Counted from the first letter of the stretch, positions 19,949 to 47,045 are shown. The stretch: DNA of 64,000 bases from Bacteroidota bacterium (GCA_036846145.1 DAIUCM010000003.1:7022-71021), one strand, 5' to 3'. The notes: generated by a model from the sequence alone, not told the origin. Made by a program: numbers and translations.

Positions 19949-19949
19949 T

Positions 19950-25567: not shown

Positions 25568-25601
25568 TGACAAAAGTCATCACTTTAATTGACTATCATC
25601 A
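25568..25601. promoter_or_regulatory. Tandem FNR/CRP-like boxes (TGAY-N4-RTCA), 22 bp apart
   Basis: TGACAAAAGTCA 25568-25579; TGACTATCATCA 25590-25601. Confidence 0.55.
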
Positions 25602-25649: not shown

Positions 25650-26519
25650 ATGAAACATTTCAAAAATAATATTTCCGTTACAAAAGCTTCCGGCAGATCA
25701 GAGCCTTTCGATATTGAAAAATTAATTCGCTCCCTTTCAAAATCCGGCGCTAATAAAGATGAAATAAATGCCGTTATCAAGGAAATTGAGCCATTTTTAC
25801 ATCCCGGAATAAAAACAAAAAAAATATACAAACTCGCTTATAAAATACTTCGCAATATTGCTAAACCCGTTGCCGGAAAATATAAACTTAAAGCTGCCAT
25901 CATGGAGCTTGGGCCTTCCGGTTATCCATTTGAACGTTTTGTTGCAGCTATTTTAAATCACCAGGGCTTTGTAACCCAAACCGGCGTTATTGTACAGGGG
26001 AAATGTGTAAAACATGAGATCGATGTTATCGCTGAAAAAGATGATAAACATTTCATGATAGAATGTAAATATCATAACCAGCTTGGCACGGTAAGCGATG
26101 TAAAAATTCCTTTATATATCAATTCACGCTTTAAAGATGTGGAAGCAAGCTGGGTGAAATTACCAGGGCATGATGTAAAACTGCACCAGGGCTGGGTTGT
26201 AACAAACACAAAATTCAGTTCCGATGCTATACAATACGGCAATTGTGCAGGCTTGCATTTGGTAGGCTGGGATTATCCGCATAAGAATAGTTTGAATGTG
26301 CAAATTGAACGTTTAGGCTTATACCCAATTACATGCCTCACAACCTTAACCAAAAGCGAAAAACACAGGCTGCTGGAAAATAAAATTGTATTGTGCAGCG
26401 AAATCTGCGCAAATCCAATATTCCTGAAAGATGCCGGCGTCAGCGATCAGCGAATGAATAGCGTTCTAAATGAAGGAAAGTCACTTTGCCAGTCGAACTC
26501 AAACCATTTCCACAGCTAA
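25650..26519 (+). CDS. ATP-cone domain fused to an Mrr-like PD-(D/E)XK nuclease domain
   Basis: N-terminal V.K.SG..E.FD.EKL..SL ATP-cone; FE...HEIDVIA...IECKYH nuclease motif. Confidence 0.82.
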   Translation: MKHFKNNISVTKASGRSEPFDIEKLIRSLSKSGANKDEINAVIKEIEPFLHPGIKTKKIYKLAYKILRNIAKPVAGKYKLKAAIMELGPSGYPFERFVAAILNHQGFVTQTGVIVQGKCVKHEIDVIAEKDDKHFMIECKYHNQLGTVSDVKIPLYINSRFKDVEASWVKLPGHDVKLHQGWVVTNTKFSSDAIQYGNCAGLHLVGWDYPHKNSLNVQIERLGLYPITCLTTLTKSEKHRLLENKIVLCSEICANPIFLKDAGVSDQRMNSVLNEGKSLCQSNSNHFHS

Positions 26520-26525
26520 GCTTAT

Positions 26526-29150
26526 ATGTACCACTCCATTACAATAGAGCAGGCCGCGCAAAAGTTAAATGCTGATTTAGAAAAAGGTTTAACCCATAAA
26601 GAAGCGGCGCAAAGGCTGGAAAAATATGGCTCTAATTTAATTACCCAAGGTTCTATTCGCAGCGCCTGGCAAATTTTGCTAAGCCAGTTTAAAAGCCCTA
26701 TTGTTTATTTACTGCTTTTTGCAACGGCGGTTTCATTCTGGTTCCAGGAATGGCTCGATGCTTCTGCCATTTTGGTTGTGTTGTTTGTTAATTCCATTAT
26801 TGGTTTTTACATGGAATACAGGGCGCAAAAATCCATGCTCTCGCTCAGGCGCCTGTCTTCTGTTTTAGTAAAAGCATTTCGCGACGGTAAAATATATGAG
26901 ATAAACTCTGATGATATTGTGCCCGGCGATGTTGTGTTTGTAGAAGCCGGCGATGTAATTCCGGCAGATACCAGGATTATACGATCTGCGCAGCTATTAA
27001 TAGATGAATCTGCATTAACAGGCGAATCCGTTCCCGTAGAAAAATCACAAGGCATATTAAATGAAAATACAATACTTGCGGAACGCACAAACAGCGCTTA
27101 CAAAGGAACGCATGTATCCAAAGGCAACGCTTACTTGCTTGTACATTCTACAGGTATGAATACTGAATTAGGCGCCATTGCAAACCTTGTCCAATCATCA
27201 GAACAGGCCGCCACGCCGCTCGAAAAAAAACTGGAAGACTTCAGTAAAAAACTTATAAAGATTACTGTCGCGCTTGTTGTCATAATATTGATAGCAGGAT
27301 TTATAAACGGCCAGAATTTCCTGGAAATGCTGGAAACTTCCATCGCTTTGGCGGTTGCTGCCATTCCTGAAGGCTTACCTATTGTAGCCACTTTAGCGCT
27401 TGCCCAAGGCATGTTAAAAATGGCGCAGTATAATGTGATCGTTAAAAAGCTTTCAGCGGTGGAAACACTTGGCGGAACAAACATAATATGTACCGACAAA
27501 ACAGGAACACTAACCCAGAATAAAATGGAAGTGGTTTTTATAGCCATGCCCGGTGAAAACTATTGGAAGAAAGAAGAAGAATTTACAGGTAATAAAGAAA
27601 TCATAGATGAAGTAATAAACTGTTCCGCGCTATGTAATACGGCGCAGGTTTATAAAGAAGAAAACCAGCTTAAAGAATCCGGCGATCCTCTTGAAATTGC
27701 TTTACTGCGTTGGGTAATTGACCAAAAACACGATATAGCTGAAATCCGTAATAACTTCCCAAAAAAGGATGAAGAGCCATTCAACAGTGAAACCAGAATT
27801 ATGGCAACGCTTCATCAAAAACAGGACAAATATTATGTTTATGCAAAAGGTGCGGCGGAAGAACTTTTGCTGAAATGTACCCATATATGGCATAACGAAA
27901 AAATGCTTTTAGATGAAGCTGCGAGAGAAAAATGGCTGATGAAAGCGCAGGAATATGCAGCTTCCGGACAGCGCCTTGTTGCTTTGGCTTATAGTGAAAA
28001 TGAAACGGAACCGAATGTATTAACTGAAAATCTGACCTTCCTGGGACTTGTTGGTATGATTGATCCGCCGAGGCCGGAAGTATTACAAGCCATAGCTGAT
28101 TGTAAAACCGCTGGAATAAAGGTGGTTATGATAACCGGCGATCATCCTTCTACCGCACAATATATCGGTAACCATTTAGGTATTTCAAAAGCTGAGGAGA
28201 AACCCATTACCGGTAAGGGTATGAAAGAATATGCTTCGTTAAACGATGAAGATAAAAAGCTGTGGCTCAGCACTTCTGTTTTTGCCCGTGTAAATCCCAA
28301 ACATAAACTCGACCTTGTTAGTGTTTTCCAGGAAAAAGGTTTTATTGTAGCCATGACCGGTGACGGAGTTAACGATGCGCCGGCACTCAAAAAGGCAGAT
28401 ATAGGTATAGCTATGGGGCAAAAAGGCACCCAGGTTGCACAGGAAGTAGCTGATATGGTTTTACAGGATGATTCTTTTTCTTCCATAGCTGTAGCTATCC
28501 GCCAGGGCAGAATTATTTTTGACAATATTAAAAAGTTCGTAACATTTCTTCTTTCGTGCAATTTAAGTGAACTGCTTGTGGTTGCGGCAGCGGCGGTATT
28601 AAACCTTCATTTCCAGCTAATTCCATTACAGATTTTATTCATAAACCTTATTACTGATGTTCTTCCCGCGCTTGCATTAAGCCTTACAAAAGGCAACAGC
28701 AACATCATGCAACAAAAACCAAGAAACACGGCGGAACCAATCATCAATTCCAGGCGATGGAAAATTATCTTCTTCTATGCTTTCGTTATTGCTTCAGCCA
28801 GTATTGCAGCAGTATTTTTCAATCATTATGTATATCATAAAAATAATGCCTGGGATGTTACGATGTGCAATAATATATTGTTTTTCACACTTATTTTCAG
28901 CCAGTTATTCCACGTGTTCAATATGGGCGATGGGCCATTTTATAACAATGAAGTAATAAAGAACAGCTACGTGTGGTACGCAACAACGGCTAATATTTTA
29001 ATTCTGATTATAGTGTTGAAAATTCCATTTGCACGGCAGACATTGGGCATAATTCTTATGACATGGGCTGAGTGGAAAATAATACTTACTGCTTCATTCG
29101 GATCAGTCTTTATCATCCAGTTGATCAAATCACTAAAAATCCTGAAATAA
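26526..29150 (+). CDS. Cation-translocating P2A-type (Ca2+-like) P-type ATPase
   Basis: TGES, IPEGLP, CTDKTGTLT, KGAAE, TGDGVNDAPAL, NLITD.LPALAL. Confidence 0.9.
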   Translation: MYHSITIEQAAQKLNADLEKGLTHKEAAQRLEKYGSNLITQGSIRSAWQILLSQFKSPIVYLLLFATAVSFWFQEWLDASAILVVLFVNSIIGFYMEYRAQKSMLSLRRLSSVLVKAFRDGKIYEINSDDIVPGDVVFVEAGDVIPADTRIIRSAQLLIDESALTGESVPVEKSQGILNENTILAERTNSAYKGTHVSKGNAYLLVHSTGMNTELGAIANLVQSSEQAATPLEKKLEDFSKKLIKITVALVVIILIAGFINGQNFLEMLETSIALAVAAIPEGLPIVATLALAQGMLKMAQYNVIVKKLSAVETLGGTNIICTDKTGTLTQNKMEVVFIAMPGENYWKKEEEFTGNKEIIDEVINCSALCNTAQVYKEENQLKESGDPLEIALLRWVIDQKHDIAEIRNNFPKKDEEPFNSETRIMATLHQKQDKYYVYAKGAAEELLLKCTHIWHNEKMLLDEAAREKWLMKAQEYAASGQRLVALAYSENETEPNVLTENLTFLGLVGMIDPPRPEVLQAIADCKTAGIKVVMITGDHPSTAQYIGNHLGISKAEEKPITGKGMKEYASLNDEDKKLWLSTSVFARVNPKHKLDLVSVFQEKGFIVAMTGDGVNDAPALKKADIGIAMGQKGTQVAQEVADMVLQDDSFSSIAVAIRQGRIIFDNIKKFVTFLLSCNLSELLVVAAAAVLNLHFQLIPLQILFINLITDVLPALALSLTKGNSNIMQQKPRNTAEPIINSRRWKIIFFYAFVIASASIAAVFFNHYVYHKNNAWDVTMCNNILFFTLIFSQLFHVFNMGDGPFYNNEVIKNSYVWYATTANILILIIVLKIPFARQTLGIILMTWAEWKIILTASFGSVFIIQLIKSLKILK

Positions 29151-30578
29151 ATGGCAACCACACAAACCAGTCTGCAATTTCTCGGCGCTGCGGGTACAGT
29201 AACTGGGTCTAAATACCTTTTGTCAATTGACGGATATAACATACTTATTGATTGCGGCCTCTTCCAGGGCGAAGATGAAAAACAGCACAATGAAAATGCC
29301 CTACGATCTCTCCCGCAAAATGTAGATTGCGTGTTGCTGACACATGCGCATCTGGACCATACCGGATTTTTACCCATGCTGATAAAAAAAGGCTTTACAG
29401 GAAAAGTTTACGGTACGAAGCCAACGCTTGAAATAACAGAAATTATTTTAAATGACAGCGCAAAAATTGCTGAAGAGGAATTAAAGCTATCCAGAAAGCA
29501 TCATAACAAGAAGCATAATAAACCGCTGCCGGATGATGAACCCTGGAAGTACGATCGTGAATTAGTGGATGCTACAGTCAAGTTGTTTTCCCCGGTAGAT
29601 ATAAACGAATGGATTTCAATTACTGATCATATTAAAGTTCGTTTCAGGTACAATGGCCATATTATAGGTGCTACTTTCATTGAAATAAATATTGATGGTA
29701 AAACAATTGTTTTTTCCGGAGACATTGGACGGCAAAACGATTTCCTTCTTTTTCCGCCGCAACAGCCTGAAAAGGCCGATATATTGATAATAGAATCTAC
29801 TTATGGCGACCGCAATCATCCAGATGATGTGGAAGGCCAGATTGAAAACCTGCTCATAGAGGCTTCAAAGCGAAATGGAACTATCATAATACCCAGTTTT
29901 GCGGTTGAACGTATGCAAATGCTGATGTATGTTTTATGGCAGATGCGTACGAAGGATAAAATCCCGAATATTCCTATTTACATGGATAGCCCGATGGGGA
30001 AAAATGTGCTTGAAATCTTCCATCATAATAATACCTGGCATAAGCTGCAACCAGAACTATGCACCCAAATGTGCGAGAATATAAAACTTGTAAGAACCGT
30101 ACAGGAAACTTATGAACTGGTAGATGACAAACGGCCTAAAATAATAATTGCAGGAAGCGGAATGGTTACCGGCGGCAGGGTTTTGACCTATTTGCAGTAT
30201 TATATACAGGACCCTTCCACAACTATTTTGCTGGCCGGATTCCAGGCGGAAGGCACTAATGGCAGGTTGTTACAGGAAGGCGTAAAAGAATTGCAGATAC
30301 GGGATAAATTATGTGCTGTAAACGCCACTGTTCACAGTATAGAAGGATTATCCGGCCACGCAGGTCAGGATGAACTGATAAATTGGATGAACAAGCTCGA
30401 AAAAATGCCAGAGAAAATATTTATCACGCATGGTGAAACCCCATCGAGAATGGGGCTGAAAGATAAGATTTTTGAAGTGTATGGCACAAACAGTGAAATA
30501 CCGCAAATAAACGAATGCGTTGAATTATTTAACCATGCGCATATAAAGGTTGATGAAAAAATGCTTACTGATCACTAA
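29151..30578 (+). CDS. MBL-fold beta-CASP nuclease (Ysh1/TTHA0252-like)
   Basis: LGAAGTVTGS, DCG, THAHLDH, GHIIGA, SGD, ESTYG, AGSGM..GGR, SGHA, HGE. Confidence 0.9.
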   Translation: MATTQTSLQFLGAAGTVTGSKYLLSIDGYNILIDCGLFQGEDEKQHNENALRSLPQNVDCVLLTHAHLDHTGFLPMLIKKGFTGKVYGTKPTLEITEIILNDSAKIAEEELKLSRKHHNKKHNKPLPDDEPWKYDRELVDATVKLFSPVDINEWISITDHIKVRFRYNGHIIGATFIEINIDGKTIVFSGDIGRQNDFLLFPPQQPEKADILIIESTYGDRNHPDDVEGQIENLLIEASKRNGTIIIPSFAVERMQMLMYVLWQMRTKDKIPNIPIYMDSPMGKNVLEIFHHNNTWHKLQPELCTQMCENIKLVRTVQETYELVDDKRPKIIIAGSGMVTGGRVLTYLQYYIQDPSTTILLAGFQAEGTNGRLLQEGVKELQIRDKLCAVNATVHSIEGLSGHAGQDELINWMNKLEKMPEKIFITHGETPSRMGLKDKIFEVYGTNSEIPQINECVELFNHAHIKVDEKMLTDH

Positions 30579-30589
30579 ATAATAATAAT

Positions 30590-31346
30590 ATGGAAAAAAT
30601 TTATGAAGGAAAAGTAGCCATTGTAACCGGTGGGTCTTTTGGTATTGGAAGGGCAACTGCTGTTGCATTTGCAAAGCGCGGTGCAAAGGTTGTAGTGGCC
30701 GATTATGTTGATGGCAGCGAAACCATGCAGCTATTAAGCGATATAAAAGCTGAAAGCATTTTTGTCCATTGTGATATATCGAAAGAAGGGGATGAAAAAA
30801 AATATGGTGTCACAGACTATTGAAAAATTTGGACGCTTAGATTTTGCTTTTAATAATGCAGGGGTTGAAGGTATTTCCGGCAGCACACACATATGCACTG
30901 AAGAAAACTGGGATCGTACAATGAATGTAAATCTGAAAGGCAACTGGCTCTGTATGAAGTATGAAATACCTGAAATATTAAAACAGGGAAAGGGCGCAAT
31001 TGTAAACAATGCTTCCATTGCAGGTTTAGTTGGTTTCCAGGGGGTACCGGCCTACGTGGCAAGTAAACATGGGTTGGTAGGCTTAACAAAAACTGCCGCA
31101 CTTGAATACGCAAAGCAAAATATCCGTATAAATGCCATTTGCCCAGGCGTAATAAAAACCCCAATGATAGACCGGGCCACAGGGAAAGTTAAAGAAGTGG
31201 AGAAAGCCTTTGAGAATATGGAACCTATTGGCAGAATGGGGCAACCGGAAGAAGTTGCAGAGCTTGCAATATTTTTATGTTCTGATGCTTCATCTTTTAT
31301 TACAGGCGGAGCCATACCAGTGGATGGCGGCTGGGTTGCGCAATAA
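30590..31346 (+). pseudogene. Classical SDR oxidoreductase, frameshifted at an A8 run (30795-30802)
   Basis: TGGSFGIG in ORF 30590-30823; NNAG, YVASK, NAICPG, PVDGG in ORF 30762-31346; removing one A fuses them. Confidence 0.85.
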
Positions 31347-31351
31347 AAGCA

Positions 31352-31385
31352 TAATCACAATCATGATTTTGTATGATCCGCATCA
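31352..31385. promoter_or_regulatory. FNR/CRP-like box plus a degenerate partner 22 bp upstream
   Basis: TGATCCGCATCA 31374-31385; TAATCACAATCA 31352-31363. Confidence 0.5.
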
Positions 31386-31482
31386 TAGTTTAAAGTTTAT
31401 AATTTAATGACATTTGAGATAACAGTACGGTGATCAATATCTGTATATCTTTCAAATTCAAAAACATATAAATTTTAAACAA

Positions 31483-32589
31483 ATGAAAAAGAATGGCAGA
31501 GTTACAAATTTCTGTAACGCGTGGTTTGGCAAGGCATTACTTATCATAATCCTTGCAGGTTTTACATGGGCCTGTCAAAAAGATGCTCCAGCCGATGATC
31601 CTAAGACAACAGCACTTAAAAAAGTAGTTTATGTTGCTGATGAAGATGACGGTACAATCACGGTTATCAACGCTGAAAGTAAAGCCAAGATAAAAATAAT
31701 TGATTTGTCTTATAATGGTGAAATGTACATGCCTCATAATGTACAGGTGGCGCCGAATGGCAAAACGGTTTGGGTTACCTGCGTACCAATGCAGGAAGGC
31801 TCAGATGAATTTGTAGCAGTAATTGATGCGGTTCAAAACACTGTTATAAAGCATATTAATGTTGGAAAAGAGCAGCATATTGCGCATGTTGTATTAGATG
31901 ATGAGTCGAAATTCGCTTATGTAACCGGAAATGAAAGTAACCAGGTTATTAAACTTGACGCGGATTCGCTGAAAGAAGTAAGGCGCTTTGAAATTGGTGA
32001 CAACCATAAACCGCACGGTATGCGCTACTATAACCATCAACTATTTATTGCGAATATGGATGGCAAAAGCATGAGCATACTGGATATTAACACAGGACAA
32101 ATAAATGAGATACAATTAGGTGGAGTTGCAGTACAAACTGCCATAACACCCAATGGCGCTTATGCTTTCGCATCTTTATATGATACACGGGAAGTTGCAG
32201 TGTATAACATCCAAACCCAAAACCTCACTAAAGTAAAACTGCCAGAAGGGTCACAAGGGCCAATTCAATTATATCCTACTCCTGACAATAAAATGGTTTA
32301 TGTGTGCGACCAGGGTGTGCTTGAAAATCGTTCGGCATCCAACAAAGTTTATGTGCTTGATATTGAAATGGGCATGATAGATAAAACAATTACGGTTGGT
32401 AACGGCGCGCATGGCATTGTGATCTGCAACCAGGGCACACAAGCCTATGTAACTAACAGTAAGGATAATACAATCTCAATTATTGACCTACAGACAAATT
32501 CTGTTACACAAACTTTGCCCGTGGGTAAAGCGCCAAATGGTATCAGCTTCTGGTTTTCTTCAAACGGAAATATTGGCGGCATGAAGTAA
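31483..32589 (+). CDS. YncE/YVTN-type beta-propeller lipoprotein
   Basis: Lipobox TWAC; seven blades with YV.N/D...TI..ID and VG..P.G motifs. Confidence 0.85.
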   Translation: MKKNGRVTNFCNAWFGKALLIIILAGFTWACQKDAPADDPKTTALKKVVYVADEDDGTITVINAESKAKIKIIDLSYNGEMYMPHNVQVAPNGKTVWVTCVPMQEGSDEFVAVIDAVQNTVIKHINVGKEQHIAHVVLDDESKFAYVTGNESNQVIKLDADSLKEVRRFEIGDNHKPHGMRYYNHQLFIANMDGKSMSILDINTGQINEIQLGGVAVQTAITPNGAYAFASLYDTREVAVYNIQTQNLTKVKLPEGSQGPIQLYPTPDNKMVYVCDQGVLENRSASNKVYVLDIEMGMIDKTITVGNGAHGIVICNQGTQAYVTNSKDNTISIIDLQTNSVTQTLPVGKAPNGISFWFSSNGNIGGMK

Positions 32590-32610
32590 TTTCCGGCTTA
32601 TGTATATATG

Positions 32611-32633
32611 GGGCAGCTTCGGCTGCCCTTTTT
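32611..32633 (+). terminator. Rho-independent terminator
   Basis: GGGCAGC-TTCG-GCTGCCC followed by a T-tract. Confidence 0.9.
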
Positions 32634-32676
32634 GTTTTTTTTAACTGTAAAAATCATTATAAACTATTGGTAATAA

Positions 32677-32719
32677 TGATTTTAATCAGGCAGCTATTTT
32701 TATTTTCAGAATACTTTTG
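32677..32719 (+). promoter_or_regulatory. FNR/CRP-like box and Bacteroidota -7 promoter element
   Basis: TGATTTTAATCA 32677-32688; TACTTTTG 32712-32719. Confidence 0.6.
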
Positions 32720-32729
32720 AAGAAAAAAC

Positions 32730-33158
32730 ATGAAGTGGTATTTTTTATTGGCATTCATTATAATGCAATACCAAAAACCTGCCGACAAAATACTTGGCAG
32801 ATGGTATACTGCTAATAATGAAGCGGTGGTTGAAGTTTACTTTTCCGGGAATGGCTACAATGCAAAAATTATCAGTTTGAAAAAGCCGAATGATGCAAAT
32901 GGCAAACCAAGGAAAGACTCAAAAAACCCTGACAAAAATTTACGGAGCCGAAATCTTACAGGTGTATTGGTGTTTTCTAATTTGAAATATAGCACAAAAA
33001 ACAACCGTTGGGAAGGCGGAAGAGTATATAACCCGGAAATGGGGCACGAAGCCGATTGTATTGTGTACCTGATTGATGAAAACACATTAAAAGTGAAAGG
33101 TTACATAGGCGCTGAATTTATAGGCAAATCCGAAACCTGGAAAAGGAAAAATAACTAA
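32730..33158 (+). CDS. DUF2147 domain protein
   Basis: G.W......A.V; D.KNPD..LR.R.L.G; W.GG..Y.P..G; L.V.GYIG....G.S.TW. Confidence 0.88.
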   Translation: MKWYFLLAFIIMQYQKPADKILGRWYTANNEAVVEVYFSGNGYNAKIISLKKPNDANGKPRKDSKNPDKNLRSRNLTGVLVFSNLKYSTKNNRWEGGRVYNPEMGHEADCIVYLIDENTLKVKGYIGAEFIGKSETWKRKNN

Positions 33159-33180
33159 GCATTTTTTTCAACATAGATAT

Positions 33181-34524
33181 ATGAACCTGTTAAACATTAT
33201 AAAAATTTTCATTGAGCGCGGCAGGCTTAGTGGTTCGGAGAAAAAAACCTACGGACAAATACTTGCAGGCCAGCAAAAAGCATTTTCTGAGCTAAGGGCA
33301 TATGCGTACGCCAATTCTGAATTTTATAAGAAATTCCACAAAGGCTTATTTGATAAACCGCTGAATGAATTACCTGTGCTGACCAAGAAAATGCTGATGG
33401 AAAACTTCGATAGGATAGTTACAGATAAGTCGGTAAAGGTAAGGGAACTGGAAGAGTTTGTTAAAAACATGTCGCTGAATGATAAATATAAAAACAAGTA
33501 TATTGTAAATGCAACAGGCGGCACCACAGGTTTGAGAGGTTTATTTATATACGATAAAAATGAGTGGGTAAAAATAATAGCGTCTTATTCCAGGGCAAAT
33601 GACTGGGGCGGCATGAAAGTTAACATTTTTACCCGGCTGAAAATAGCTGTTGTTAGCTCAAAAGTACCATGGCATCAGTCTTCGCAAGTTGGAAATACTT
33701 TGAAGTCGCCATTTATAAAAACACTAAGAATAGATTCAACCGAAACAATTCCCGAAATTGTATGGAAGCTGAATAAATTCAGGCCAAAAATATTGGTTGG
33801 TTATCCTTCTATGGCATTCGCACTGGCGAAAGAACAACTGGCAGGAAGGTTGAAAATAAATCCGCAGATTAGTTTCTGCGCCGCTGAAATCCTTACGCCA
33901 AATATAAAAAACACTGTAGAGCAAGCTTGGCAAATAACGCCATTCAACGTATATGCGGCAACGGAAACCGCTGGTATAGCATCGGAGTGTACCATGCACA
34001 ATGGTATGCACTTGTATGAAGACCTGGTGATTATAGAGAATGTTGATGATAATTATAAACCTGTAGCGCCAGGAAACTTCGGCACAAGGTTACTCGCAAC
34101 AGTACTTTTTTCAAGGACAATTCCCTTGATAAGATATGAAATTACCGACAGTGTAAAAATAGCGGAAAAAACATGCAGTTGCGGGCTTCCATTTAAGCTT
34201 ATTGATGAAATACAGGGCCGTACCGAAGATACTATTACTCTTGAAGAAAATGGCAGCAAAATAAGCGTTCACCCAAATGTTTTTCATAAAGTTCTGGAAG
34301 ATACTGTAGCCATGGAATGGCAAGTAATTCAAACCGGTAATAATGCCATTGAACTCAGGTTCCAGGACAAAATAAGCAAAACAAAAAAAGAGGAAATCCT
34401 CCAAAAGCTTTATGCTGCGTTGGATTCATTCCGGGCCAAACCAATGCTCACATTACAAGACAATACTGAATTTATGAGAACTGCAATAGGCAAAAAAATA
34501 CTTATCAAAGCGCTAAAAAGATGA
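33181..34524 (+). CDS. Phenylacetate-CoA ligase / CapK / F390-like adenylate-forming enzyme
   Basis: LP.LTK..LM..FD, TGGTTG loop, GYPS, YAATE, PLIRYE.TD, GR..D. Confidence 0.8.
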   Translation: MNLLNIIKIFIERGRLSGSEKKTYGQILAGQQKAFSELRAYAYANSEFYKKFHKGLFDKPLNELPVLTKKMLMENFDRIVTDKSVKVRELEEFVKNMSLNDKYKNKYIVNATGGTTGLRGLFIYDKNEWVKIIASYSRANDWGGMKVNIFTRLKIAVVSSKVPWHQSSQVGNTLKSPFIKTLRIDSTETIPEIVWKLNKFRPKILVGYPSMAFALAKEQLAGRLKINPQISFCAAEILTPNIKNTVEQAWQITPFNVYAATETAGIASECTMHNGMHLYEDLVIIENVDDNYKPVAPGNFGTRLLATVLFSRTIPLIRYEITDSVKIAEKTCSCGLPFKLIDEIQGRTEDTITLEENGSKISVHPNVFHKVLEDTVAMEWQVIQTGNNAIELRFQDKISKTKKEEILQKLYAALDSFRAKPMLTLQDNTEFMRTAIGKKILIKALKR

Positions 34525-36011
34525 TAGATAAACATAGCGGCAATATTTTAAAAGTAAAATCTCTTGGAATAGATTCTTATCGCGAGAACATTATTTTCAT
34601 GCGGGCTGATTGCCATATTTGCACTTCAGAAGGTTTTAAAGCACTAACCAGGGTTGTTGTAAAATCTGCCAGCAACAGTATAATAGCTACTTTAAATGTA
34701 GTGTATTCCGATATTCTTGCAGAAAATGAAGCAGGACTTTCACTGGAAGCGCTAAAACGTTTAGGGGTGAATGATGGCGATGAAATAGAAATCACGCATT
34801 TAAATCCTGTAAAATCTTTCCAGTACGTTCGCGGAAGGATGTTTGGCAAAGCATTTTCCGAGCAGCAGTTATATGACATTATACATGATATAGTGAATGG
34901 CCGATATTCCAATATTGAACTGGCAGCTTTTATCACAGTATGTTCAAACGGAAACCTTTCGGTAAATGAAATTATATATTTAACCAAAGCCATGCTCTCC
35001 GCCGGTCGCCGATTGAAATGGAACGCGCCGTTTGTGCTTGATAAACATTCCATTGGCGGCTTGCCGGGAAACCGAACCACACCCATTGTAGTCAGCATTA
35101 TTGCCGCAGCCGGTTATCTTATTCCAAAAACATCTTCCAGGGCCATAACTTCACCTGCCGGTACTGCTGATACCGTAGAAGTAATCACGAATGTTACTAT
35201 GGATTTAGAGCAGATCGAGCACACGGTGCTGCTGGAAAACGGCTGCCTTGCCTGGGGCGGCGCCATAAAATTAAGTCCTGCCGATGATATAATTATCTCT
35301 GTAGAAAAAGCGCTGGATATTGACAGTGAAGGGCAAATGGTTGCCTCGGTTTTATCCAAAAAGGCCGCCGCCGGTTCCACGCATGTAGTTATTGATATTC
35401 CCATTGGTGAAACAGCAAAAGCCAGGACGCAACCCGATGCAGAAAGGCTCGCCGCTTTATTTGAAAAAGTAGGCAAAGAAATAGGTTTACATGTAAAAGT
35501 TGTATTTACAAATGGAACACAGCCGGTTGGGATTGGAATTGGCCCTGTGTTAGAAGCGATGGATGTACTTTCGGTTTTACAGAATTCAGCAAATGCGCCG
35601 CAAGATCTGAAAATTAAATCTGTTAAGCTCGCACAGGATTTATTGGATCTGGTAGGATCAGATAAAAGAGCGCTTGAAATACTTGAAAATGGCGAGGCTT
35701 ACAAAAAATTCAAAGCCATTTGTTTAGCGCAAGGCGAATGGAAAATACCTCAATTTGCCAAATATTCCAAAGAAATTAAAGCCACGAAGAGTGGACATGT
35801 AAAAAGTGTAAATAACCGGCAAATTGCCAAGCTTGCTAAACTTGCAGGTGCGCCGGTTTCCCCGGCAGCAGGAATACAATATTTTTCGTCAATAGGTAAA
35901 AAAATAAACAAAGGCGATACGCTCTTTACTATCTGGGCGGAAATACCCGGAGAATTAGCTTATGCGCTGGATTATCTTACTTCTGTACCTGATATTATTA
36001 AAATTAATTAG
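34521..36011 (+). CDS. Archaeal-type thymidine/AMP phosphorylase family protein with N-terminal extension
   Basis: N-terminal GIDSYRENIIFMR.DC..C domain; DKHSIGGLPGNRTT, KTSSRAITSPAGTAD, SVLSKK.AAG. Confidence 0.88.
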   Translation: MIDKHSGNILKVKSLGIDSYRENIIFMRADCHICTSEGFKALTRVVVKSASNSIIATLNVVYSDILAENEAGLSLEALKRLGVNDGDEIEITHLNPVKSFQYVRGRMFGKAFSEQQLYDIIHDIVNGRYSNIELAAFITVCSNGNLSVNEIIYLTKAMLSAGRRLKWNAPFVLDKHSIGGLPGNRTTPIVVSIIAAAGYLIPKTSSRAITSPAGTADTVEVITNVTMDLEQIEHTVLLENGCLAWGGAIKLSPADDIIISVEKALDIDSEGQMVASVLSKKAAAGSTHVVIDIPIGETAKARTQPDAERLAALFEKVGKEIGLHVKVVFTNGTQPVGIGIGPVLEAMDVLSVLQNSANAPQDLKIKSVKLAQDLLDLVGSDKRALEILENGEAYKKFKAICLAQGEWKIPQFAKYSKEIKATKSGHVKSVNNRQIAKLAKLAGAPVSPAAGIQYFSSIGKKINKGDTLFTIWAEIPGELAYALDYLTSVPDIIKIN

Positions 36012-36884
36012 ATGAAAACAATAATTTTTGGTATGCCGGGCAACGAAACCATGGCACAAAAAATAGCAGCGAATATAAATGCCGAATTAGCTGAGTTTAC
36101 TTTAAGGCGATTTCCCGATGGAGAAACTTATTTGCGTATTACATCCGATTTATTAGGTAAAAATTGTGTTTTTGTATGCAGTTTAAACCAGCCCGATGAC
36201 AAAATTTTAGCGCTTTATTATTTATCGAAACTATGCCGCGAACTTGGAGCAGATAAGGTCACACTCATATCGCCATATTTATCTTATATGCGCCAGGATA
36301 CTCGTTTTCATGAAGGTGAAGCCATCACATCAGAATATTTTGCGCAGTTGCTTTCAAAATGGTTTGATGAATTAATAACTGTTGATCCGCATTTGCACCG
36401 AAAGCACAATATGAGTGAATTATATTCAATACCTTGTAAGGTTTTACACTCGCCGCCTGTTATAGCTGATTGGATAAAAAATAATATTAAAAATCCTTTG
36501 CTGATTGGCCCGGATAGCGAAAGTGAACAATGGGTATCGGATACGGCAAGGTATATTGATGCTCCATATATCATACTTGAAAAAAATAGGTTGGGTGATA
36601 AATCTGTAGAAATATCTGTGCCGAATGTATCGAAGTTTGTGGGCCGAACGCCTGTGCTGGTGGATGATATTATTTCCACTGCCAGGACAATGATAGAAAC
36701 GGTTTACCATTTAATCAAAGCACAGATGCAGCCGCCGGTAATAATTGGCGTTCATGCAGTTTTTTCCGGCGATGCGTTTCAAAATTTGAAGGATTCAGGA
36801 GTTTCTGAAATTATAACCTGCAATACAATTCCCCACATCACAAATCGAATTGATTTCAGCAAAGAAATTAGTAAGAATTTATAA
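36012..36884 (+). CDS. Ribose-phosphate pyrophosphokinase (Prs) homologue
   Basis: FPDGETY, PYLSYMRQD, VDPH, PD, K.R, VDDIISTARTM, H.VFSG. Confidence 0.85.
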   Translation: MKTIIFGMPGNETMAQKIAANINAELAEFTLRRFPDGETYLRITSDLLGKNCVFVCSLNQPDDKILALYYLSKLCRELGADKVTLISPYLSYMRQDTRFHEGEAITSEYFAQLLSKWFDELITVDPHLHRKHNMSELYSIPCKVLHSPPVIADWIKNNIKNPLLIGPDSESEQWVSDTARYIDAPYIILEKNRLGDKSVEISVPNVSKFVGRTPVLVDDIISTARTMIETVYHLIKAQMQPPVIIGVHAVFSGDAFQNLKDSGVSEIITCNTIPHITNRIDFSKEISKNL

Positions 36885-37499: not shown

Positions 37500-38039
37500 T
37501 TATAAGGCTCCCCATTTTCTAATGGCATCCTTTTTTGCTGATAATTTACCTCTAAATACATAAGACGGGTTGAGAAATATTTCACCATTCTTGTTTTTCA
37601 GAATATTATGTTGTCCCAAATATAGAAGCGTGTTACTGAATGAATTAATGGGTATGTTCAAGGTTTTTGCGGCATCTATTCGAGCCTGGGTAGTTAAATG
37701 GAAAATATTGGTGTCAATTTCGGCCAATATAGCTAAATAAATAAAAACCCTCAATCCGTTCGCCGATGTTAATTCCATCAACTTACTTGCACCGTCAATA
37801 CATATCATAGCAAAATGATCCGTATCTACAGGTATGCCGTATTTTTTGCTTTCTATGACCGGCTCATCTATACCATTATTTCGGAGTGTAACATTTTCAA
37901 GTATTTTTTTTCTTGTTCTTCCTCCACGGTCTAAACGGTTAATTTTTTCTTTTAGAACATTTGTTCCTGGTTCGTCATCATGAATTGGCTTACTAAGCAA
38001 GCCGTCAAAATTACAATTGGGTGATGTGTTGCTTTCCAA
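37500..38039 (-). CDS. RepL-like replication/maintenance wHTH protein (start uncertain)
   Basis: LRVFIYL...wHTH...G..FLNPSYVFRG C-terminal motif typical of RepL; only a TTG start in frame. Confidence 0.6.
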   Translation of the reverse strand: MESNTSPNCNFDGLLSKPIHDDEPGTNVLKEKINRLDRGGRTRKKILENVTLRNNGIDEPVIESKKYGIPVDTDHFAMICIDGASKLMELTSANGLRVFIYLAILAEIDTNIFHLTTQARIDAAKTLNIPINSFSNTLLYLGQHNILKNKNGEIFLNPSYVFRGKLSAKKDAIRKWGAL

Positions 38040-38406
38040 GTGTTTCTCATTGTTTTAAACTTAAATTATTAGTATGGATATACTGTACGACGCACAGTAT
38101 TTTTTAAATCCATGAAAAATATATCGAAAAAAAACTAAAATTCCAAATTCATCTAATGAATAAGGCCGAAGAAACTCTAACTACACTATAAGGAAAAAAA
38201 ATGATATACACATGAATATCAATGCTTTAACATTGTGCAGATATTATGTCTGATAATTTTAAAATTATCAATAACCATAATAATATTATTATTGAGGCAT
38301 ATTCGCCAGTATAAACCGATGTTAAAGCTAATATTTTGGACTGCTTCATCTGTTACAACCACATTCTACAACAGGTTTTTATTATCTTGCGGCAAAATAA
38401 TTCGAT

Positions 38407-40809
38407 ATGGGTGATAAAAGACACCTATCAGAACGCGATATCTGCACTAAATATATAACACCAGCCATACAGGCTGCTGGCTGGGATATTGATTCACAAA
38501 TACTTGAAGAAGTAAGTTTTACTGACGGTAAAATTTATGTTCGCGGTAAGCTAACAGCAAGGGGCAAACGCAAGCGAGCAGATTATATTCTTTATTACAA
38601 ATCAAATATACCCGTAGCTATTATTGAGGCCAAAGATAATACGCATACTATAAAAGATGGATTGCAACAGGCGCTTGATTATGCGCAGATATTAGATATT
38701 CCCTGTGTTTTCAGTTCGAATGGCGATGGATTTTATTTCCATGACAGAACGGTTAGTGATGGAGATATTGAAACTGAATTAACGTTGGACAGTTTTCCGT
38801 CTCCGGATGAATTATGGAATAAATATAAAACGTATAAAGGTATTTTTACTCCGGAGCAGGAGAAAATATCTACCCAAGAATACTACAAAGATGGATCAGG
38901 TAAAACACCGCGTTACTACCAGCAAATTGCCATCAACCGCACTATAGAAGCTATTTCTAAGGGTCAGCCAAGAATTATGCTTACCATGGCTACAGGCACT
39001 GGGAAAACGTTTGTTGCTTTTCAAATTATGTATAGATTATGGAAAGCCAGAACAAAAAAGCGGATACTTTTCCTGGCCGATAGAAATATATTATTGAACC
39101 AGGCTTATAATAAGGATTTTAAGCCATTTAAAGGCGCTATGACGATCGTTAAGCATCGTATGGTAGATAAGAGCTATGAAATATATTTAGCGCTTTACCA
39201 GGGCCTTTCCGGCAACGATGAAGCGGCTAATATATACCAACAATTTTCTCCAGATTTTTTTGACCTGGTCATTATTGATGAGTGTCACCGTGGATCGGCG
39301 AAAGATGATAGCGCCTGGCGTGAAATATTGAAATATTTTGACAAAGCCACTCACATTGGGCTTACCGCTACGCCTAAAGAAACCAAGGATACATCCAATA
39401 CAGAATATTTCGGCGATCCTGTATATACATATTCGCTAAGACAAGGTATAGAAGATGGGTTTCTTGCACCATTCCGGGTAGTTCGTATTGGTTTGGATAT
39501 CGATCTTGAAGGTTGGCGCCCACCTGCCGGTTTTCTCGATAAGAATGGCAACCTGGTGGAAGACCGGATTTATAACCGAACTGATTTTGATAAAAATATA
39601 GTTGTTGAGGAACGAAGAAAACTTGTAGCCCATAAGGTAACGGAATTCTTAAAGGGTACCGATGAAATGGCTAAAACCATAGTATTCTGCGTTGATATTG
39701 AACATGCACAAGGTATGCGAGCCGCATTGGCCAACGCAAATCCAGATCAGGCCAGGAAGAACTATAAATACGTAATGCAGATTACTGGTGATAATGAAGA
39801 GGGTAAACGCGAGCTTGATAATTTTATCAATCCTGAAGAAACCTATCCTGTTATAGCTACAACTTCTAAATTAATGACCACAGGTGTGGATTCTCAAACC
39901 TGTAAGGTCATTGTACTTGATTCAAATATCGGCTCACCTACCGAATTCAAACAAATTATTGGCCGTGGAACCCGAATCAATGAAGACCATGGTAAAATGT
40001 ATTTTACGATTCTGGATTTTCGTAGTGCTACAGACCATTTTGCCGATCCTGATTTTGATGGGCCGCCAATCAGAATAAAAGAAGCTGGTGAAGCCACTGA
40101 TATTAGTGGAACAGAAGATGAAGAAATAATAGATGGTGTACCTGTTCCTGATCCTGAAGAAGGTGGGGAAGATGATAAGCCAATAGGTGATGTTTTTCCA
40201 CCAGATGTAAGAAAACCTGGTGACTTTACACCAACGGACAAACGTGATAAAATATTTGTCGATGGAATAGACGTAACTGTACTTGTTTCTCGCGAATTAT
40301 ATTTTGACAATAACGGAAAACCCATAACTACGAGCTTGAAGGACCATACCCGTGATTCTATATTAAATAATTATGCAAGCCTGGAAGAATTCCTCAATAA
40401 ATGGAACGCTGCTGACCGTAAAGAAGCGATTATAAAAGAACTTGAAGAACAGGGTGTGTTGGTAGAAGCATTGCAAAAAGCTGTAAATAAAGACCTGGAT
40501 TTATTCGACCTGATATGTCATGTTGCTTTTGACCAGAAGCCGCTTACCCGTAAAGAAAGGGCCAATAATGTACGTAAACGAAATGCCTTTGCGAAGTATG
40601 GCGACAAAGCCAGAAAAGTTTTAGACGCGCTTCTTGACAAATATATGGATGAAGGCATTGAGAACTTGGAAAACATTGAAGTATTGAAACTTGAAAAATT
40701 CAGACCGTTTGGCGTACCGGTAGAAATAATTAAAGCTTTTGGCGGAAAAGAAGAATACAAGTTAGCGATCAAGGAACTGGAGAAAGAATTGTACAGACGC
40801 GCAAGCTAA
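38407..40809 (+). CDS. hsdR: Type I restriction subunit R (EcoAI/EcoEI-like)
   Basis: RADY.L...IIEAK, MATGTGKT, DECHRG, QIIGRGTR, EcoEI-type C-terminus. Confidence 0.93.
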   Translation: MGDKRHLSERDICTKYITPAIQAAGWDIDSQILEEVSFTDGKIYVRGKLTARGKRKRADYILYYKSNIPVAIIEAKDNTHTIKDGLQQALDYAQILDIPCVFSSNGDGFYFHDRTVSDGDIETELTLDSFPSPDELWNKYKTYKGIFTPEQEKISTQEYYKDGSGKTPRYYQQIAINRTIEAISKGQPRIMLTMATGTGKTFVAFQIMYRLWKARTKKRILFLADRNILLNQAYNKDFKPFKGAMTIVKHRMVDKSYEIYLALYQGLSGNDEAANIYQQFSPDFFDLVIIDECHRGSAKDDSAWREILKYFDKATHIGLTATPKETKDTSNTEYFGDPVYTYSLRQGIEDGFLAPFRVVRIGLDIDLEGWRPPAGFLDKNGNLVEDRIYNRTDFDKNIVVEERRKLVAHKVTEFLKGTDEMAKTIVFCVDIEHAQGMRAALANANPDQARKNYKYVMQITGDNEEGKRELDNFINPEETYPVIATTSKLMTTGVDSQTCKVIVLDSNIGSPTEFKQIIGRGTRINEDHGKMYFTILDFRSATDHFADPDFDGPPIRIKEAGEATDISGTEDEEIIDGVPVPDPEEGGEDDKPIGDVFPPDVRKPGDFTPTDKRDKIFVDGIDVTVLVSRELYFDNNGKPITTSLKDHTRDSILNNYASLEEFLNKWNAADRKEAIIKELEEQGVLVEALQKAVNKDLDLFDLICHVAFDQKPLTRKERANNVRKRNAFAKYGDKARKVLDALLDKYMDEGIENLENIEVLKLEKFRPFGVPVEIIKAFGGKEEYKLAIKELEKELYRRAS

Positions 40810-40912
40810 AGCCCATGCTTTACAAAATAAAAGCATTTTTTGACCAAAGCACATATGAAAGCCCAATGGTCAAATTCTTTTAAACATTAATAAAAATTAT
40901 TAAAAATTTATA

Positions 40913-43665: not shown

Positions 43666-43730
43666 TGTTGAAATATTCTTCACGCATATTCTATATGTAC
43701 AATGGTTTTTAATTAAAAACTACGCCAATT

Positions 43731-44363: not shown

Positions 44364-44686
44364 TATTAAATACATTATCCCAATTACAATATACAAAAGC
44401 ATTTTCTGACGAGCTCATATATACAATTCAGTTTTTTAGAAACGATTTTTACAAAGCTTGGAATTGGAGAAACCTAATATTTATAAAATTTAATTATCAG
44501 GAACATTTTATTAATTGAAAATAAATTTGATATTTGACTAAAAATCCGAGATTTGTCGGAGAATTTCATATTTCAGTAATAAACTGTAACTTTGCAGGAA
44601 AATTCAGGTTTACGGCTCAATATTTGATTTTTAAACAATAAACTCGGATTTTCCTTGTTATAAGTAATTAATTAACCCTTATAGCC

Positions 44687-45330: not shown

Positions 45331-45493
45331 TATAGTTTCAGGTTCCAATTTTATTGCACTTTGCTTCAATTATGCGATATCCGCATTTGACACTCATCGC
45401 CATCGCGCCGCTCTGGATGTTAATCCTATATTTTATATAAATACCTGTATTATAAATTATTTAGCATCCTAATCAAGCTTTCTGTTTGGGATG

Positions 45494-47028: not shown

Positions 47029-47045
47029 AAAAATAAATATTCTGT

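Follow-up and report, generated by a model that had tools for sequence, protein, structure and literature searches.

A mobile phosphorylase-Prs module in a Bacteroidota copper island and its probable role in RNA and nucleotide recycling

We found that the nucleotide-handling genes at positions 25650-36884 of a 64-kb stretch of Bacteroidota DNA (this whole stretch is called the window below) belong to a gene module that is real and widespread in bacteria and that, from what its sequences suggest, probably recycles RNA and nucleotides at times of oxygen or energy shortage. For the block itself, we see an even chance that it is a local copy of this horizontally mobile stress module, operating at low oxygen or under energy stress along a route from RNA to NMPs and on to ribose-bisphosphate or PRPP. 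The conserved core is an AMP-phosphorylase-like enzyme and a second, class-III-like Prs, translationally coupled and usually preceded by a TTHA0252-type RNase gene. An initial sequence-only reading had presented the system as a candidate undescribed one. This stands in so far as the literature searched contained no functional study of the module and did not characterise its function, but the trio itself already carries annotations in hundreds of genomes and appears among the listed FixK2 targets.

All gene calls in the block are on the plus strand and were confirmed, as were its three stop/start junctions (29150/29151 and 36011/36012, which directly abut, and 34521/34524, a 4-bp overlap), which lie where they had been claimed. 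Pfam and NCBIfam profiles also bore out the identities of the four nucleotide-handling families. Besides these four, the block holds five more genes, encoding a P-type ATPase, a frameshifted SDR oxidoreductase, a propeller protein, a DUF2147 protein and an adenylate-forming enzyme. The block is not one operon, because it is interrupted by a strong intrinsic terminator (32610-32629, plus strand; 8-bp stem with 6 G-C pairs and a T-run). It consists of three units, each preceded by a regulatory box and separated by the five other genes and the terminator. The four-gene block proposed earlier thus keeps its single strand but not its status as a single unit, its core being the phosphorylase-Prs pair, with or without the beta-CASP gene. 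The window copy lies within a copper-resistance island of a Bacteroidota element, and in Bacteroidota the module is accompanied by copper efflux genes, in agreement with the proposal that it rides on metal islands.

The phosphorylase (34521-36011, plus strand, 496 aa) was identified by profiles and motifs as an AMP-phosphorylase-like nucleotide/nucleoside phosphorylase, with a complete NP-II architecture (Glycos_trans_3N, Glycos_transf_3 and PYNP_C, each above its Pfam cut-off) and an extra N-terminal domain: its Pfam NP-II domains begin at residue 109, the AMP_phos profile aligns from residue 10 and the alignment with the T. kodakarensis AMP phosphorylase (Tk-AMPpase) runs from residue 59 (Tk residue 47). 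In the Tk-AMPpase structure, the extra N-terminal domain reportedly spans about 85-100 residues and is essential. The window protein passes PRK04350 (621 bits vs 434) and TIGR02645, 'putative thymidine phosphorylase' (537.6 vs 434.6), and fails the curated AMP phosphorylase equivalog TIGR03327 (453.2 bits vs 535). Its closest solved structure is Tk-AMPpase (4GA4-6), at 310 bits vs ~110 for PyNP. Its motifs GGlPGNRT and KTSSRAITSpAGTAD are of the Tk-AMPpase type and keep the AMPpase forms GGxPGN(K/R)T and KTSSRAITSxAGTAD, whereas PyNP has GGV-GDTT and KMSGRGLGHTGGTID; and at the position of the Arg in the PyNP ALRD motif, the phosphorylase clade and Tk-AMPpase both carry a Glu. At the motif level, the enzyme is AMP-phosphorylase-like rather than thymidine-phosphorylase-like, as had been anticipated.

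The gene that abuts it (36012-36884, plus strand, 290 aa) encodes, by profiles and motifs, a PRK07199-type ribose-phosphate diphosphokinase (class III-like Prs). The protein has Pribosyltran_N and Pribosyltran domains and scores above the cut-offs of both PRK07199 (390 bits vs 322) and TIGR01251 (198 vs 113). When motifs were compared with the pattern FxDxE, RQD, DxH, KxR and a ribose-5-P loop DDxxxTxxT, the forms FPDxE, RQD, DPH, the KxR flexible loop and DDxxSxxT were kept in at least 90% of 59 clade members. They align with the M. jannaschii Prs (1U9Y), and the R5P loop of the window protein reads DDIISTARTM. Relatives are carried on 126 plasmids, 49 of these conjugative, so this Prs is probably an accessory second copy.

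The third member of the trio is a beta-CASP metallo-beta-lactamase ribonuclease (29151-30578, plus strand, 475 aa; Pfam Lactamase_B, Beta-Casp and RMMBL) that keeps all MBL and beta-CASP motifs (HAHLDH, ESTYGD, SGHAG and ITHGE). Its closest solved relative is the T. thermophilus RNase TTHA0252 (247 bits), which is, however, of the housekeeping type and for which we know of no described link to a phosphorylase. Its best NCBIfam profile is type VII CRISPR Cas14; this identity was rejected, since the score (392 bits vs a cut-off of 800) is too low, the alignment is partial (profile positions 3-446 of 612) and no CRISPR-like repeat arrays were found.

Upstream, the block opens with a nuclease gene (25650-26519, plus strand, 289 aa) in which Pfam recognises an ATP-cone, a PD-(D/E)xK (Mrr_cat) and an AF1548-like C-terminal domain. 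The putatively nucleotide-binding ATP-cone passes its gathering score (30.8 bits vs 25.8), and its residues K12 and G15 are invariant among relatives. Across 14 relatives from 4 phyla, six Cys are conserved and E95, D125 and E138-x-K140 do not vary, with D125 and E138-x-K140 forming the predicted PD-(D/E)xK active site. The nuclease core matches PDB 1Y88 (AF1548; E 1e-47), its closest solved relative, and the aligned part of the 199-residue chain starts after the ATP-cone region; AF1548 has, to our knowledge, no known function. The next gene (26526-29150, plus strand, 874 aa) encodes a type II (PMR1/SERCA-like) cation P-type ATPase according to Pfam and NCBIfam profiles, the best of which, TIGR01522 (651 bits), scores under its equivalog cut-off.

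Relatives were found in at least 596 species, and the best 80 loci, from 80 species, span at least 8 phyla. The neighbourhood check upheld the earlier expectation: the module families co-occur across phyla far above chance. The invariant core, an AMP-phosphorylase-like gene followed by a Prs-like gene, is present in 67/79 loci; the median spacing is 2 bp, and in 44/62 the two genes are no more than 10 bp apart, many of them overlapping by 4 bp or 1 bp. The beta-CASP RNase adjoins the phosphorylase in 44/79 loci (median gap 8 bp) and is absent from 35/79, and looser partners are the type II P-type ATPase (28/79) and the ATP-cone nuclease (18/79, absent from 61/79). Both of these join the core in Bacteroidota, Chlamydiota and some Legionella and Acidobacteriota. 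Phosphoketolase (8/80 loci), acetate kinase (6), Usp (9) and Crp/Fnr (5) recur nearby, as do PFK, PPK2, 2-hydroxyacid dehydrogenase and MgtC. On a Criblamydia plasmid, one same-strand row comprises P-ATPase, phosphoketolase, GlgP, an ATP-cone protein, MBL, TP, Prs and acetate kinase. The non-core immediate neighbours are heterogeneous, no family being present in more than 3 of 102.

The shared upstream boxes of the sequence-only reading proved to be real. The palindrome TGAYNNNNRTCA has 6 exact matches in the 64-kb window, of which four (at 25568, 25590, 31374 and 32677) fall within the three intergenic regions of the block (384 bp in total), where the window-wide rate predicts ~0.02 sites and the intergenic rate in related loci ~0.2. 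Two CRP/FNR-type palindromes, TGACAAAAGTCA (25568-25579) and TGACTATCATCA (25590-25601), are spaced by 22 bp and stand at -82 and -60 relative to the nuclease ATG, and a third, TGATCCGCATCA (31374-31385), lies at -109 from the propeller ATG. At 32650-32688, an 11-bp inverted repeat (arms 32650-32660 and 32673-32683) overlaps the CRP/FNR-type palindrome TGATTTTAATCA (32677-32688); this box region is at -53 from the DUF2147 ATG, a TAnnTTTG element (32712-32719) follows about 40 bp downstream, and the box centre precedes the likely transcription start of this third unit by ~40 bp. TTGA-N6-TCAA-type palindromes are thus present at promoter distance, with the core TGAY-N4-RTCA before all three units, which would therefore form one regulon. 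The 22-bp-spaced double box is also found upstream of the nuclease in one related locus (L005) and of the first gene in another (L017), and single boxes are found in L003 and L009. Several related Bacteroidota copies have no such boxes upstream, and the 64-kb window contains no Crp/Fnr gene. CRP/FNR-type palindromes respond to many signals besides oxygen, and since copper efflux genes accompany the Bacteroidota module, the true cue could be copper or general envelope stress.

The link to oxygen is drawn from one alphaproteobacterium, Bradyrhizobium. In B. diazoefficiens, bll3117-bll3116-bll3115 (TP-family, Prs and MBL) are predicted to form a single operon, which has a FixK2 box at -74; for two of the genes, bll3117 and bll3115, reduced expression in the tested fixK2 strains is listed (PMC9104804). 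All three proteins belong to the 62-protein core microoxic proteome (PMC6515984). As in the window, a TTGA-N6-TCAA-type box precedes genes annotated to these three families (thymidine phosphorylase family, ribose-phosphate pyrophosphokinase and MBL-fold hydrolase); unlike the window copy, the operon is ordered TP-Prs-MBL, is chromosomal, has neither ATP-cone nuclease nor ATPase and is known from omics tables only. Annotation names and gene order suggest that it belongs to the same clade as the window module. By analogy, the Bradyrhizobium data would independently tie the core to oxygen limitation.

The archaeal AMP metabolic (pentose bisphosphate) pathway of Thermococcus kodakarensis consists of the AMP phosphorylase DeoA, R15P isomerase and type III Rubisco. 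The window phosphorylase resembles the first of these in its three NP-II domains, its archaeal-type N-terminal domain and its active-site motifs. Unlike the archaeal pathway, however, the module sits in bacterial hosts, is mobile, has Prs as an obligate partner and often a beta-CASP RNase, carries CRP/FNR-type boxes as putative regulation in the window, and its phosphorylase scores under the equivalog cut-off. Neither R15P isomerase nor Rubisco accompanies the module in the window or at the 83 related loci, in line with the Rubisco-free system first proposed: no domain of either enzyme was found among the ORFs of at least 120 aa in the 64-kb window, a Rubisco motif had no match in 1323 ORFs across the 83 loci and window positions 15001-47000, and neither enzyme figures among the 25 Pfam families seen most often in the 102 immediate neighbours.

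Closer to the hypoxia theme, the Burkholderia cenocepacia lxa locus and the M. tuberculosis DosR regulon resemble the window in their metal-dependent RNase (BCAM0300) and cation P-type ATPase (BCAM0318, CtpF-like). These hypoxia/dormancy sets also hold Usp, phosphofructokinase and Anr/Crp-type regulators; the window-related loci share Usp, PFK and Crp/Fnr with them and also carry phosphoketolase and acetate kinase. Unlike these sets, the window copy lies in a copper island without a Usp gene. The lxa paper does not mention thymidine phosphorylase and uses 'phosphoribosyl' only where ribose phosphate feeds PRPP. Functional analogies can be found in E. coli, where AMP nucleosidase (Amn) converts AMP to free base and ribose phosphate and PhnN links R15P to PRPP. 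Neither has a sequence relationship to the module, neither gene is in the block, and Amn is hydrolytic, unlike the phosphorylase, whereas PhnN is a P-loop kinase, unlike Prs.

In the reading that we favour, a shortage of oxygen or energy would switch on the regulon. Dispensable RNA would be converted by the RNase, and possibly also by the ATP-cone nuclease when ATP leaves its cone, to 5'-NMPs, which the phosphorylase would cleave with phosphate to free base and ribose-1,5-bisphosphate (R15P). The coupled Prs would then tie the ribose to the R5P/PRPP pool, for nucleotide salvage at recovery or for ATP via phosphoketolase and acetate kinase. In this scheme we infer the substrates, the direction of flux, the route from R15P to R5P/PRPP and the sensor role of the ATP-cone. 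The R15P-to-PRPP/ATP step is wholly conjectural within the block, because Prs uses R5P and not R15P, and no known enzyme for converting R15P to R5P or PRPP is encoded there; the loop drawn in the sequence-only reading is not supported at this step. A bolder version, which we consider quite unlikely, is a two-enzyme route that regenerates ATP from RNA and bypasses respiration: the doubly phosphorylated ribose (R15P, or PRPP with pyrophosphate) would be used by Prs running in reverse (PRPP + AMP to R5P + ATP), R5P would pass to phosphoketolase and acetate kinase, and the ATP-cone nuclease would act as a low-ATP trigger. If true, the module would be a Rubisco-free bacterial counterpart of the archaeal AMP pathway, an anoxia-survival kit spread by plasmids and ICEs.

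Several other explanations were weighed against RNA and nucleotide recycling. AMP is both a product of Prs and the substrate of AMPpase, and the pair could serve as a buffer of the adenylate pool: as ATP declines, the phosphorylase would take AMP away (AMP + Pi to adenine + R15P), keeping up the energy charge as AMP nucleosidase does in E. coli, and on recovery PRPP from Prs would serve to rebuild AMP out of the adenine that had been saved, RNA not being the main substrate and the RNase and nuclease being loosely associated. The very tight phosphorylase-Prs coupling, the many cores that lack RNase or nuclease, and the recurrence nearby of MgtC and PPK2, which are tied to ATP and phosphate homeostasis, argue for such a buffer; yet the RNase is still the commonest third partner, closely spaced, and a forward run of both enzymes would consume ATP, and we hold this explanation to be fairly unlikely. 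It is distinctly improbable that the chemistry centres on PRPP, with an NP-II enzyme that is TrpD-like or uses pyrophosphate (NMP + PPi <-> base + PRPP) and a Prs that feeds an unusual nucleotide or runs backwards for ATP. PRPP is the one metabolite known for both Prs and the NP-II/TrpD fold, the TrpD profile matches the phosphorylase weakly, translational coupling that is almost obligate points to a labile intermediate which the two enzymes share, and the additional Prs on plasmids speaks for a flux dedicated to PRPP; but in its active site the phosphorylase has the motifs of AMPpase rather than TrpD, the nearby genes include no conserved acceptor-forming gene, and we know of no precedent for pyrophosphorolysis by the NP-II family.

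The composition of the block raises a different question, as the ATP-cone nuclease shows closer linkage with the P-type ATPase and copper islands than it does with the phosphorylase: in nuclease-first look-ups, the ATPase was next door in 4/5 cases and a copper island present in 4/5, with TP-Prs in only 2/5. Nuclease and ATPase may thus be a copper/metal-island cassette of their own, adjacent by chance to RNase-phosphorylase-Prs as common island cargo, which would also fit the nuclease's absence from most TP loci and its occurrence beside the metal-island adenylate-forming enzyme without TP-Prs. We regard this as rather doubtful, since the nuclease also lies beside TP-Prs in Bacteroidota, in Gammaproteobacteria (L056, L081), in Acidobacteriota (L077) and in Chlamydiota (L086), with the order of the genes varying, and the two cassettes share a rare palindrome in the window. 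The sequence-only reading had offered an anti-phage role as its alternative. In such a scheme an anti-phage or abortive-infection module would deplete nucleotides and degrade nucleic acids, with the ATP-cone nuclease and the beta-CASP enzyme as effectors. In its favour, the block is on a mobile island beside a type I R-M system and an integrase, the fold of the nuclease is that of restriction enzymes, Cas14 is the best profile for the beta-CASP enzyme, and there are weak PADLOC matches to the nuclease domains of CARF/Csx1, ZorD and LmuA. Against this, PADLOC-DB 2.0 returned nothing for the phosphorylase, Prs, the adenylate-forming enzyme or the ATPase and only domain-level matches for the nucleases, the Cas14 score is far below its cut-off and no CRISPR-like repeats accompany it, and the neighbours are metabolic or metal-efflux genes rather than defence genes. 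Moreover, a rhizobial chromosome carries the core, by annotation, as an operon under oxygen control, and in neither the window nor loci L001-L003 and L084-L092 does a methyltransferase adjoin the nuclease. We consider a defence role unlikely, and the effector scheme as a whole very improbable; the alternative gained no support.

The SDR oxidoreductase gene (30590-31346, plus strand) is broken by a 1-nt frameshift at an A8 run (about 30793-30800), reflecting either a pseudogene or a sequencing error. Profiles identify a YncE-like seven-bladed beta-propeller protein (31483-32589, plus strand) and Pfam a DUF2147 protein (32730-33158, plus strand), both window-specific passengers; no propeller was found next to the phosphorylase in the related loci elsewhere, and a similar one precedes the adenylate-forming enzyme in L095. 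That enzyme (33181-34524, plus strand, 447 aa), left unnamed earlier, is PaaK/CapK/F390-synthetase-related (TIGR02304, 135 bits, below cut-off). The stop of its gene overlaps the phosphorylase start; the gene is in none of the 83 related loci, and the enzyme's relatives are found in metal islands of unrelated phyla. Elsewhere in the 64-kb window, a type I R-M system, complete by itself, lies 12 kb off, and an integrase is also near the block.

The block at 25650-36884 was resolved by gene calls and domain profiles into nine genes, all on the plus strand. These encode a nuclease with ATP-cone, PD-(D/E)xK (Mrr_cat) and AF1548-like C-terminal domains (25650-26519), a type II PMR1/SERCA-like P-type ATPase (26526-29150), a beta-CASP metallo-beta-lactamase (MBL) RNase (29151-30578), an SDR (30590-31346), a YncE-like beta-propeller (31483-32589), a DUF2147 protein (32730-33158), a PaaK/CapK/F390-synthetase-related adenylate-forming enzyme (33181-34524), an NP-II phosphorylase (34521-36011) and a Prs (36012-36884). 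The tight stop/start junctions described in the sequence-only reading were exact on the re-called genes, and its single block held as regards the shared strand but not as one operon: because a strong intrinsic terminator lies 3' of the propeller gene (32610-32629), at least three transcription units are present. The SDR gene carries a 1-nt frameshift in an A8 run (~30793-30800), which could reflect a pseudogene, a sequencing error or a slippage site in the homopolymer; an intact SDR gene is found near the phosphorylase in L004 and L005 (L numbers denote related loci from other genomes carrying homologues of block genes). A riboswitch and sRNA search against Rfam gave no credible match in the block and none at gathering score in six related loci, and neither tRNAs nor CRISPR-like repeats were found in the window.

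The shared upstream boxes proposed for the block, palindromes of the CRP/FNR type, proved real. Of the six copies of the palindrome TGAYNNNNRTCA in the 64-kb window (3.45 ± 1.9 expected), four fall within the 384 bp of intergenic DNA preceding the three units: two lie 22 bp apart in front of the nuclease gene (25568 and 25590, at -82 and -60 from the ATG), one 5' of the propeller gene (31374) and one 5' of DUF2147 (32677). A Bacteroidota-type TAnnTTTG element (32712-32719) follows ~30-40 bp downstream of the DUF2147 box centre, a spacing that would match the classical class II CRP/FNR activator position. The double box with its 22-bp spacing is also found 5' of the nuclease gene in L005 and, in L017, 5' of the gene that opens the run; L003 (Daejeonella oryzae) and L009 have one box each in front of the nuclease gene. 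The motif is informative only in this looser form, with Y/R at the inner positions. The canonical FNR box (TTGATNNNNATCAA, up to 2 mismatches) was rejected as an enriched motif (64 found vs 66 expected), as was k-mer sharing among the upstream regions, which returned AT-rich noise only. The DUF2147 box also overlaps an 11-bp inverted repeat (AAAATCATTAT-N12-ATAATGATTTT), the two together spanning 32650-32688.

The phosphorylase scores 310 bits against the AMP phosphorylase of T. kodakarensis (4GA4-6), vs at most about 110 bits against pyrimidine and thymidine phosphorylases. It possesses the extra N-terminal domain and the AMPpase-type active-site loops, and has a Glu at the position of the Arg in the ALRD motif of PyNP, which we take to be a pyrimidine-binding residue. 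Its scores exceed the cut-offs of PRK04350 and TIGR02645; because these AMPpase features are present but the curated AMP-phosphorylase equivalog cut-off is missed (453 vs 535), the protein is classed from its sequence as AMP-phosphorylase-like rather than as AMP phosphorylase proper. The Prs passes PRK07199 and TIGR01251, is nearest to the class III enzyme of M. jannaschii and keeps all its catalytic motifs across 59 clade members. The RNase has the full set of MBL and beta-CASP motifs and is nearest to the T. thermophilus RNase TTHA0252; assignment as a type VII Cas14 was discarded, with a score well under the cut-off and no CRISPR array. In the ATP-cone nuclease, which is plausibly a nucleotide-gated effector, the D...ExK site is invariant and the core is that of AF1548 (PDB 1Y88). 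Six cysteines are conserved in this family (C119, C139, C199, C229, C249 and ~C280), one of them the middle residue of ExK, and may form a metal- or redox-sensing site. The nuclease travels with copper islands.

The sequence-only reading had joined nuclease, RNase, phosphorylase and Prs in one four-gene system. Partner counts around the phosphorylase in 79 loci (tblastn and ORF clustering) sustained this for the Prs, which lies immediately 3' on the same strand in 67 loci (median stop-to-start gap 2 bp; ≤10 bp in 44/62), and for the RNase (44/79, mostly immediately 5' with a median gap of 8 bp), but not for the nuclease, which is found in 18/79 (21/83 by tblastn) and is separable together with the P-type ATPase (28/79). 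When five loci were looked up from the nuclease, the ATPase adjoined it in four, a copper island was present in four, the RNase in three and the phosphorylase-Prs pair in two. These counts therefore define a hierarchy: a phosphorylase-Prs core, the RNase as its usual third member, and a nuclease-ATPase pair that is frequent yet separable. Nuclease-bearing loci are mostly from Bacteroidota, with a gammaproteobacterium (L056), Legionella drancourtii (L081) and an acidobacterium (L077) in addition. The propeller and the adenylate-forming gene occur in 0/79 phosphorylase loci and DUF2147 gave a single match around related phosphorylases, distant and on the opposite strand (L019); these three genes are a local insertion between RNase and phosphorylase. 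The F390-synthetase-like gene overlaps the phosphorylase start, yet it is absent from all 83 loci and was rejected as a conserved member; it is part of the metal-island gene pool.

A homologue of the phosphorylase is present in at least 596 species (alignment of relatives), among them Legionella, Leptospira, rhizobia and numerous environmental Bacteroidota. The best 80 loci come from Bacteroidota, Alpha-, Beta- and Gammaproteobacteria (including Legionella), Planctomycetota, Leptospira, Acidobacteriota and Gemmatimonadota. At least 126 plasmids carry the gene, 49 of them predicted to be conjugative. A Criblamydia sequanensis plasmid aligns on one strand a P-ATPase, phosphoketolase, glycogen phosphorylase, ATP-cone protein, MBL, phosphorylase, Prs and acetate kinase, and shorter versions reside on Pontibacter and L. 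pneumophila plasmids. Since the module is so often plasmid-borne, its Prs probably supplements a first copy as an accessory enzyme. A 786-aa reading frame in Planctomycetota (L027) that looked like a phosphorylase 'fusion' was a spurious high-GC upstream ORF extension and no Rosetta-stone fusion.

A physiological setting is provided by B. diazoefficiens, in which adjacent genes encode a thymidine phosphorylase family protein (bll3117), a ribose-phosphate pyrophosphokinase (bll3116) and an MBL-fold hydrolase (bll3115), all within the 62-protein core microoxic proteome and with transcripts induced 5- to 15-fold at 0.5% O2 (PMC6515984). The three genes are predicted to form a single operon preceded at -74 by a FixK2 box (ATGATCTGGGTCAA), and lower expression of bll3117 and bll3115 is listed in the fixK2 strains tested (PMC9104804). 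This trio is likened to the window's clade by annotation names and gene order. Neighbours recurring in the 80 loci include phosphoketolase (8), acetate kinase (6), Usp (9), Crp/Fnr regulators (5), 2-hydroxyacid dehydrogenase (7), MgtC (6), PPK2 (3) and PFK (2), as well as MerR and copper genes; Pfam counts over 102 immediate non-core neighbours yielded nothing recurrent (at most 3 members per family). The neighbours overlap in content with the Burkholderia lxa locus and the DosR regulon: metal-dependent RNase, cation ATPase, Usps and PFK (PMC3721108). No Rubisco motif was found in 1323 ORFs from 83 related loci and window positions 15001-47000, and no Rubisco or R15P (ribose-1,5-bisphosphate) isomerase domain in window ORFs of at least 120 aa, in agreement with the absence of both genes noted from the sequence.

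With gene identities, motifs, linkage, boxes and Bradyrhizobium expression data as the observations in hand, the best-supported reading of the block is a transferable oxygen- or energy-limitation module, to which we give about an even chance. Its presumed substrates and flux direction are as follows: the RNase would convert RNA to 5'-NMPs, the AMPpase-like enzyme would split these into base and R15P, and the coupled Prs would deliver the ribose to the ribose-5-phosphate (R5P)/PRPP pool, from which nucleotides could be resynthesized on recovery or ATP obtained via phosphoketolase and acetate kinase. Most conjectural is the passage from R15P to R5P/PRPP, and the loop from R15P to PRPP and ATP drawn in the sequence-only reading is not supported, the block having no known enzyme for R15P to R5P or PRPP. 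Removal of AMP as an energy-charge buffer is a second reading, which we think unlikely; that two unrelated island cassettes merely stand side by side is doubtful to the same degree. PRPP-centred chemistry, by TrpD-like transfer or by pyrophosphorolysis with Prs reversed, would be a rather improbable explanation. Anti-phage defence, also suggested earlier, is the weakest rival and in our estimate very improbable, because PADLOC has no match for the core, its neighbours are metabolic genes and a rhizobium carries it as a chromosomal operon under oxygen control.

The closest system known to compare with this limitation module is the archaeal AMP/pentose bisphosphate pathway. Both have the first enzyme type in common, whereas the module is devoid of that pathway's downstream enzymes and contains a dedicated Prs and RNase in addition. 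In the full-text literature searched, the coverage of which excludes most subscription journals, no study was found of what the bacterial pair does, and the pair appears only as rows of Bradyrhizobium omics tables. To our knowledge, nucleotide phosphorolysis routes have until now been known from archaea and a few candidate phyla alone. Should the chemistry be borne out, bacteria would have a Rubisco-independent route of this kind, tied to a dedicated PRPP synthase and RNase and, if our reading is true, switched on by oxygen or energy limitation. Given its presence in so many species and plasmids, the module may be a common, transferable aid to surviving hypoxia, for example in nodules, biofilms, host cells and sediments. 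It could likewise account for 'hypoxia' genes moving together with copper-resistance islands, and it offers the large ATP-cone/AF1548 nuclease family a first functional context. The window copy is one among hundreds of a module that is conserved, mobile, found in pathogens and symbionts, and directly testable.

Small conserved proteins are encoded immediately 3' of Prs or between ATPase and RNase in Bacteroidota copies of the module (~225 aa in L026, L030, L040 and L045; L087, 15238-16286; ~198 aa in L088/L089); the L026 protein (~225 aa) had no Pfam match, and those of L087-L089 had none in precomputed listings. One locus labelled as a Citrobacter freundii MAG (L004, QFQQ01000060.1) shows a Bacteroidota-like order (CusB, CusB, P-ATPase, nuclease, RNase, phosphorylase, SDR, Prs), with 53-59% identity to the window for nuclease, ATPase, RNase, phosphorylase and Prs and 73% for the SDR; the contig is likely mis-binned or a recent transfer. 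The adenylate-forming enzyme (PaaK/CapK/F390-synthetase-like) recurs in metal-resistance islands of very different lineages (L092/L093, L094, L095): immediately 3' of an ATP-cone nuclease in Cyclobacteriaceae, after a YncE-like propeller and a DOMON protein in Thermaceae, and among P-type ATPase, YHS and DUF305 genes on a third contig.

The block itself is surrounded by a Bacteroidota-type island with T9SS sorting domains, a split CusA and two copper/silver efflux clusters. A RepL-like gene and a complete type I R-M system (hsdR, hsdM, hsdS) occupy 37500-49376 with a tyrosine integrase on the minus strand (48144-49376), and GC content steps from 0.35 to 0.45 near 50 kb, at the start of a 4286-aa CHU_C/T9SS surface protein; this region probably marks the boundary of an integrative element. 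The CusA-type RND pump is divided between two overlapping ORFs (18671-19948, ~422 aa; 19929-21869, ~640 aa), an arrangement shared with several unrelated Bacteroidota loci (L001, L002, L006, L090), so that it resembles a conserved trait of the lineage more than a local pseudogene. ORF 43-1803 of the first efflux cluster joins, in one frame, the C-terminal 155 residues of an ACR_tran pump to a complete outer-membrane factor (OEP) domain, and is either a CusA-CusC fusion or a read-through.
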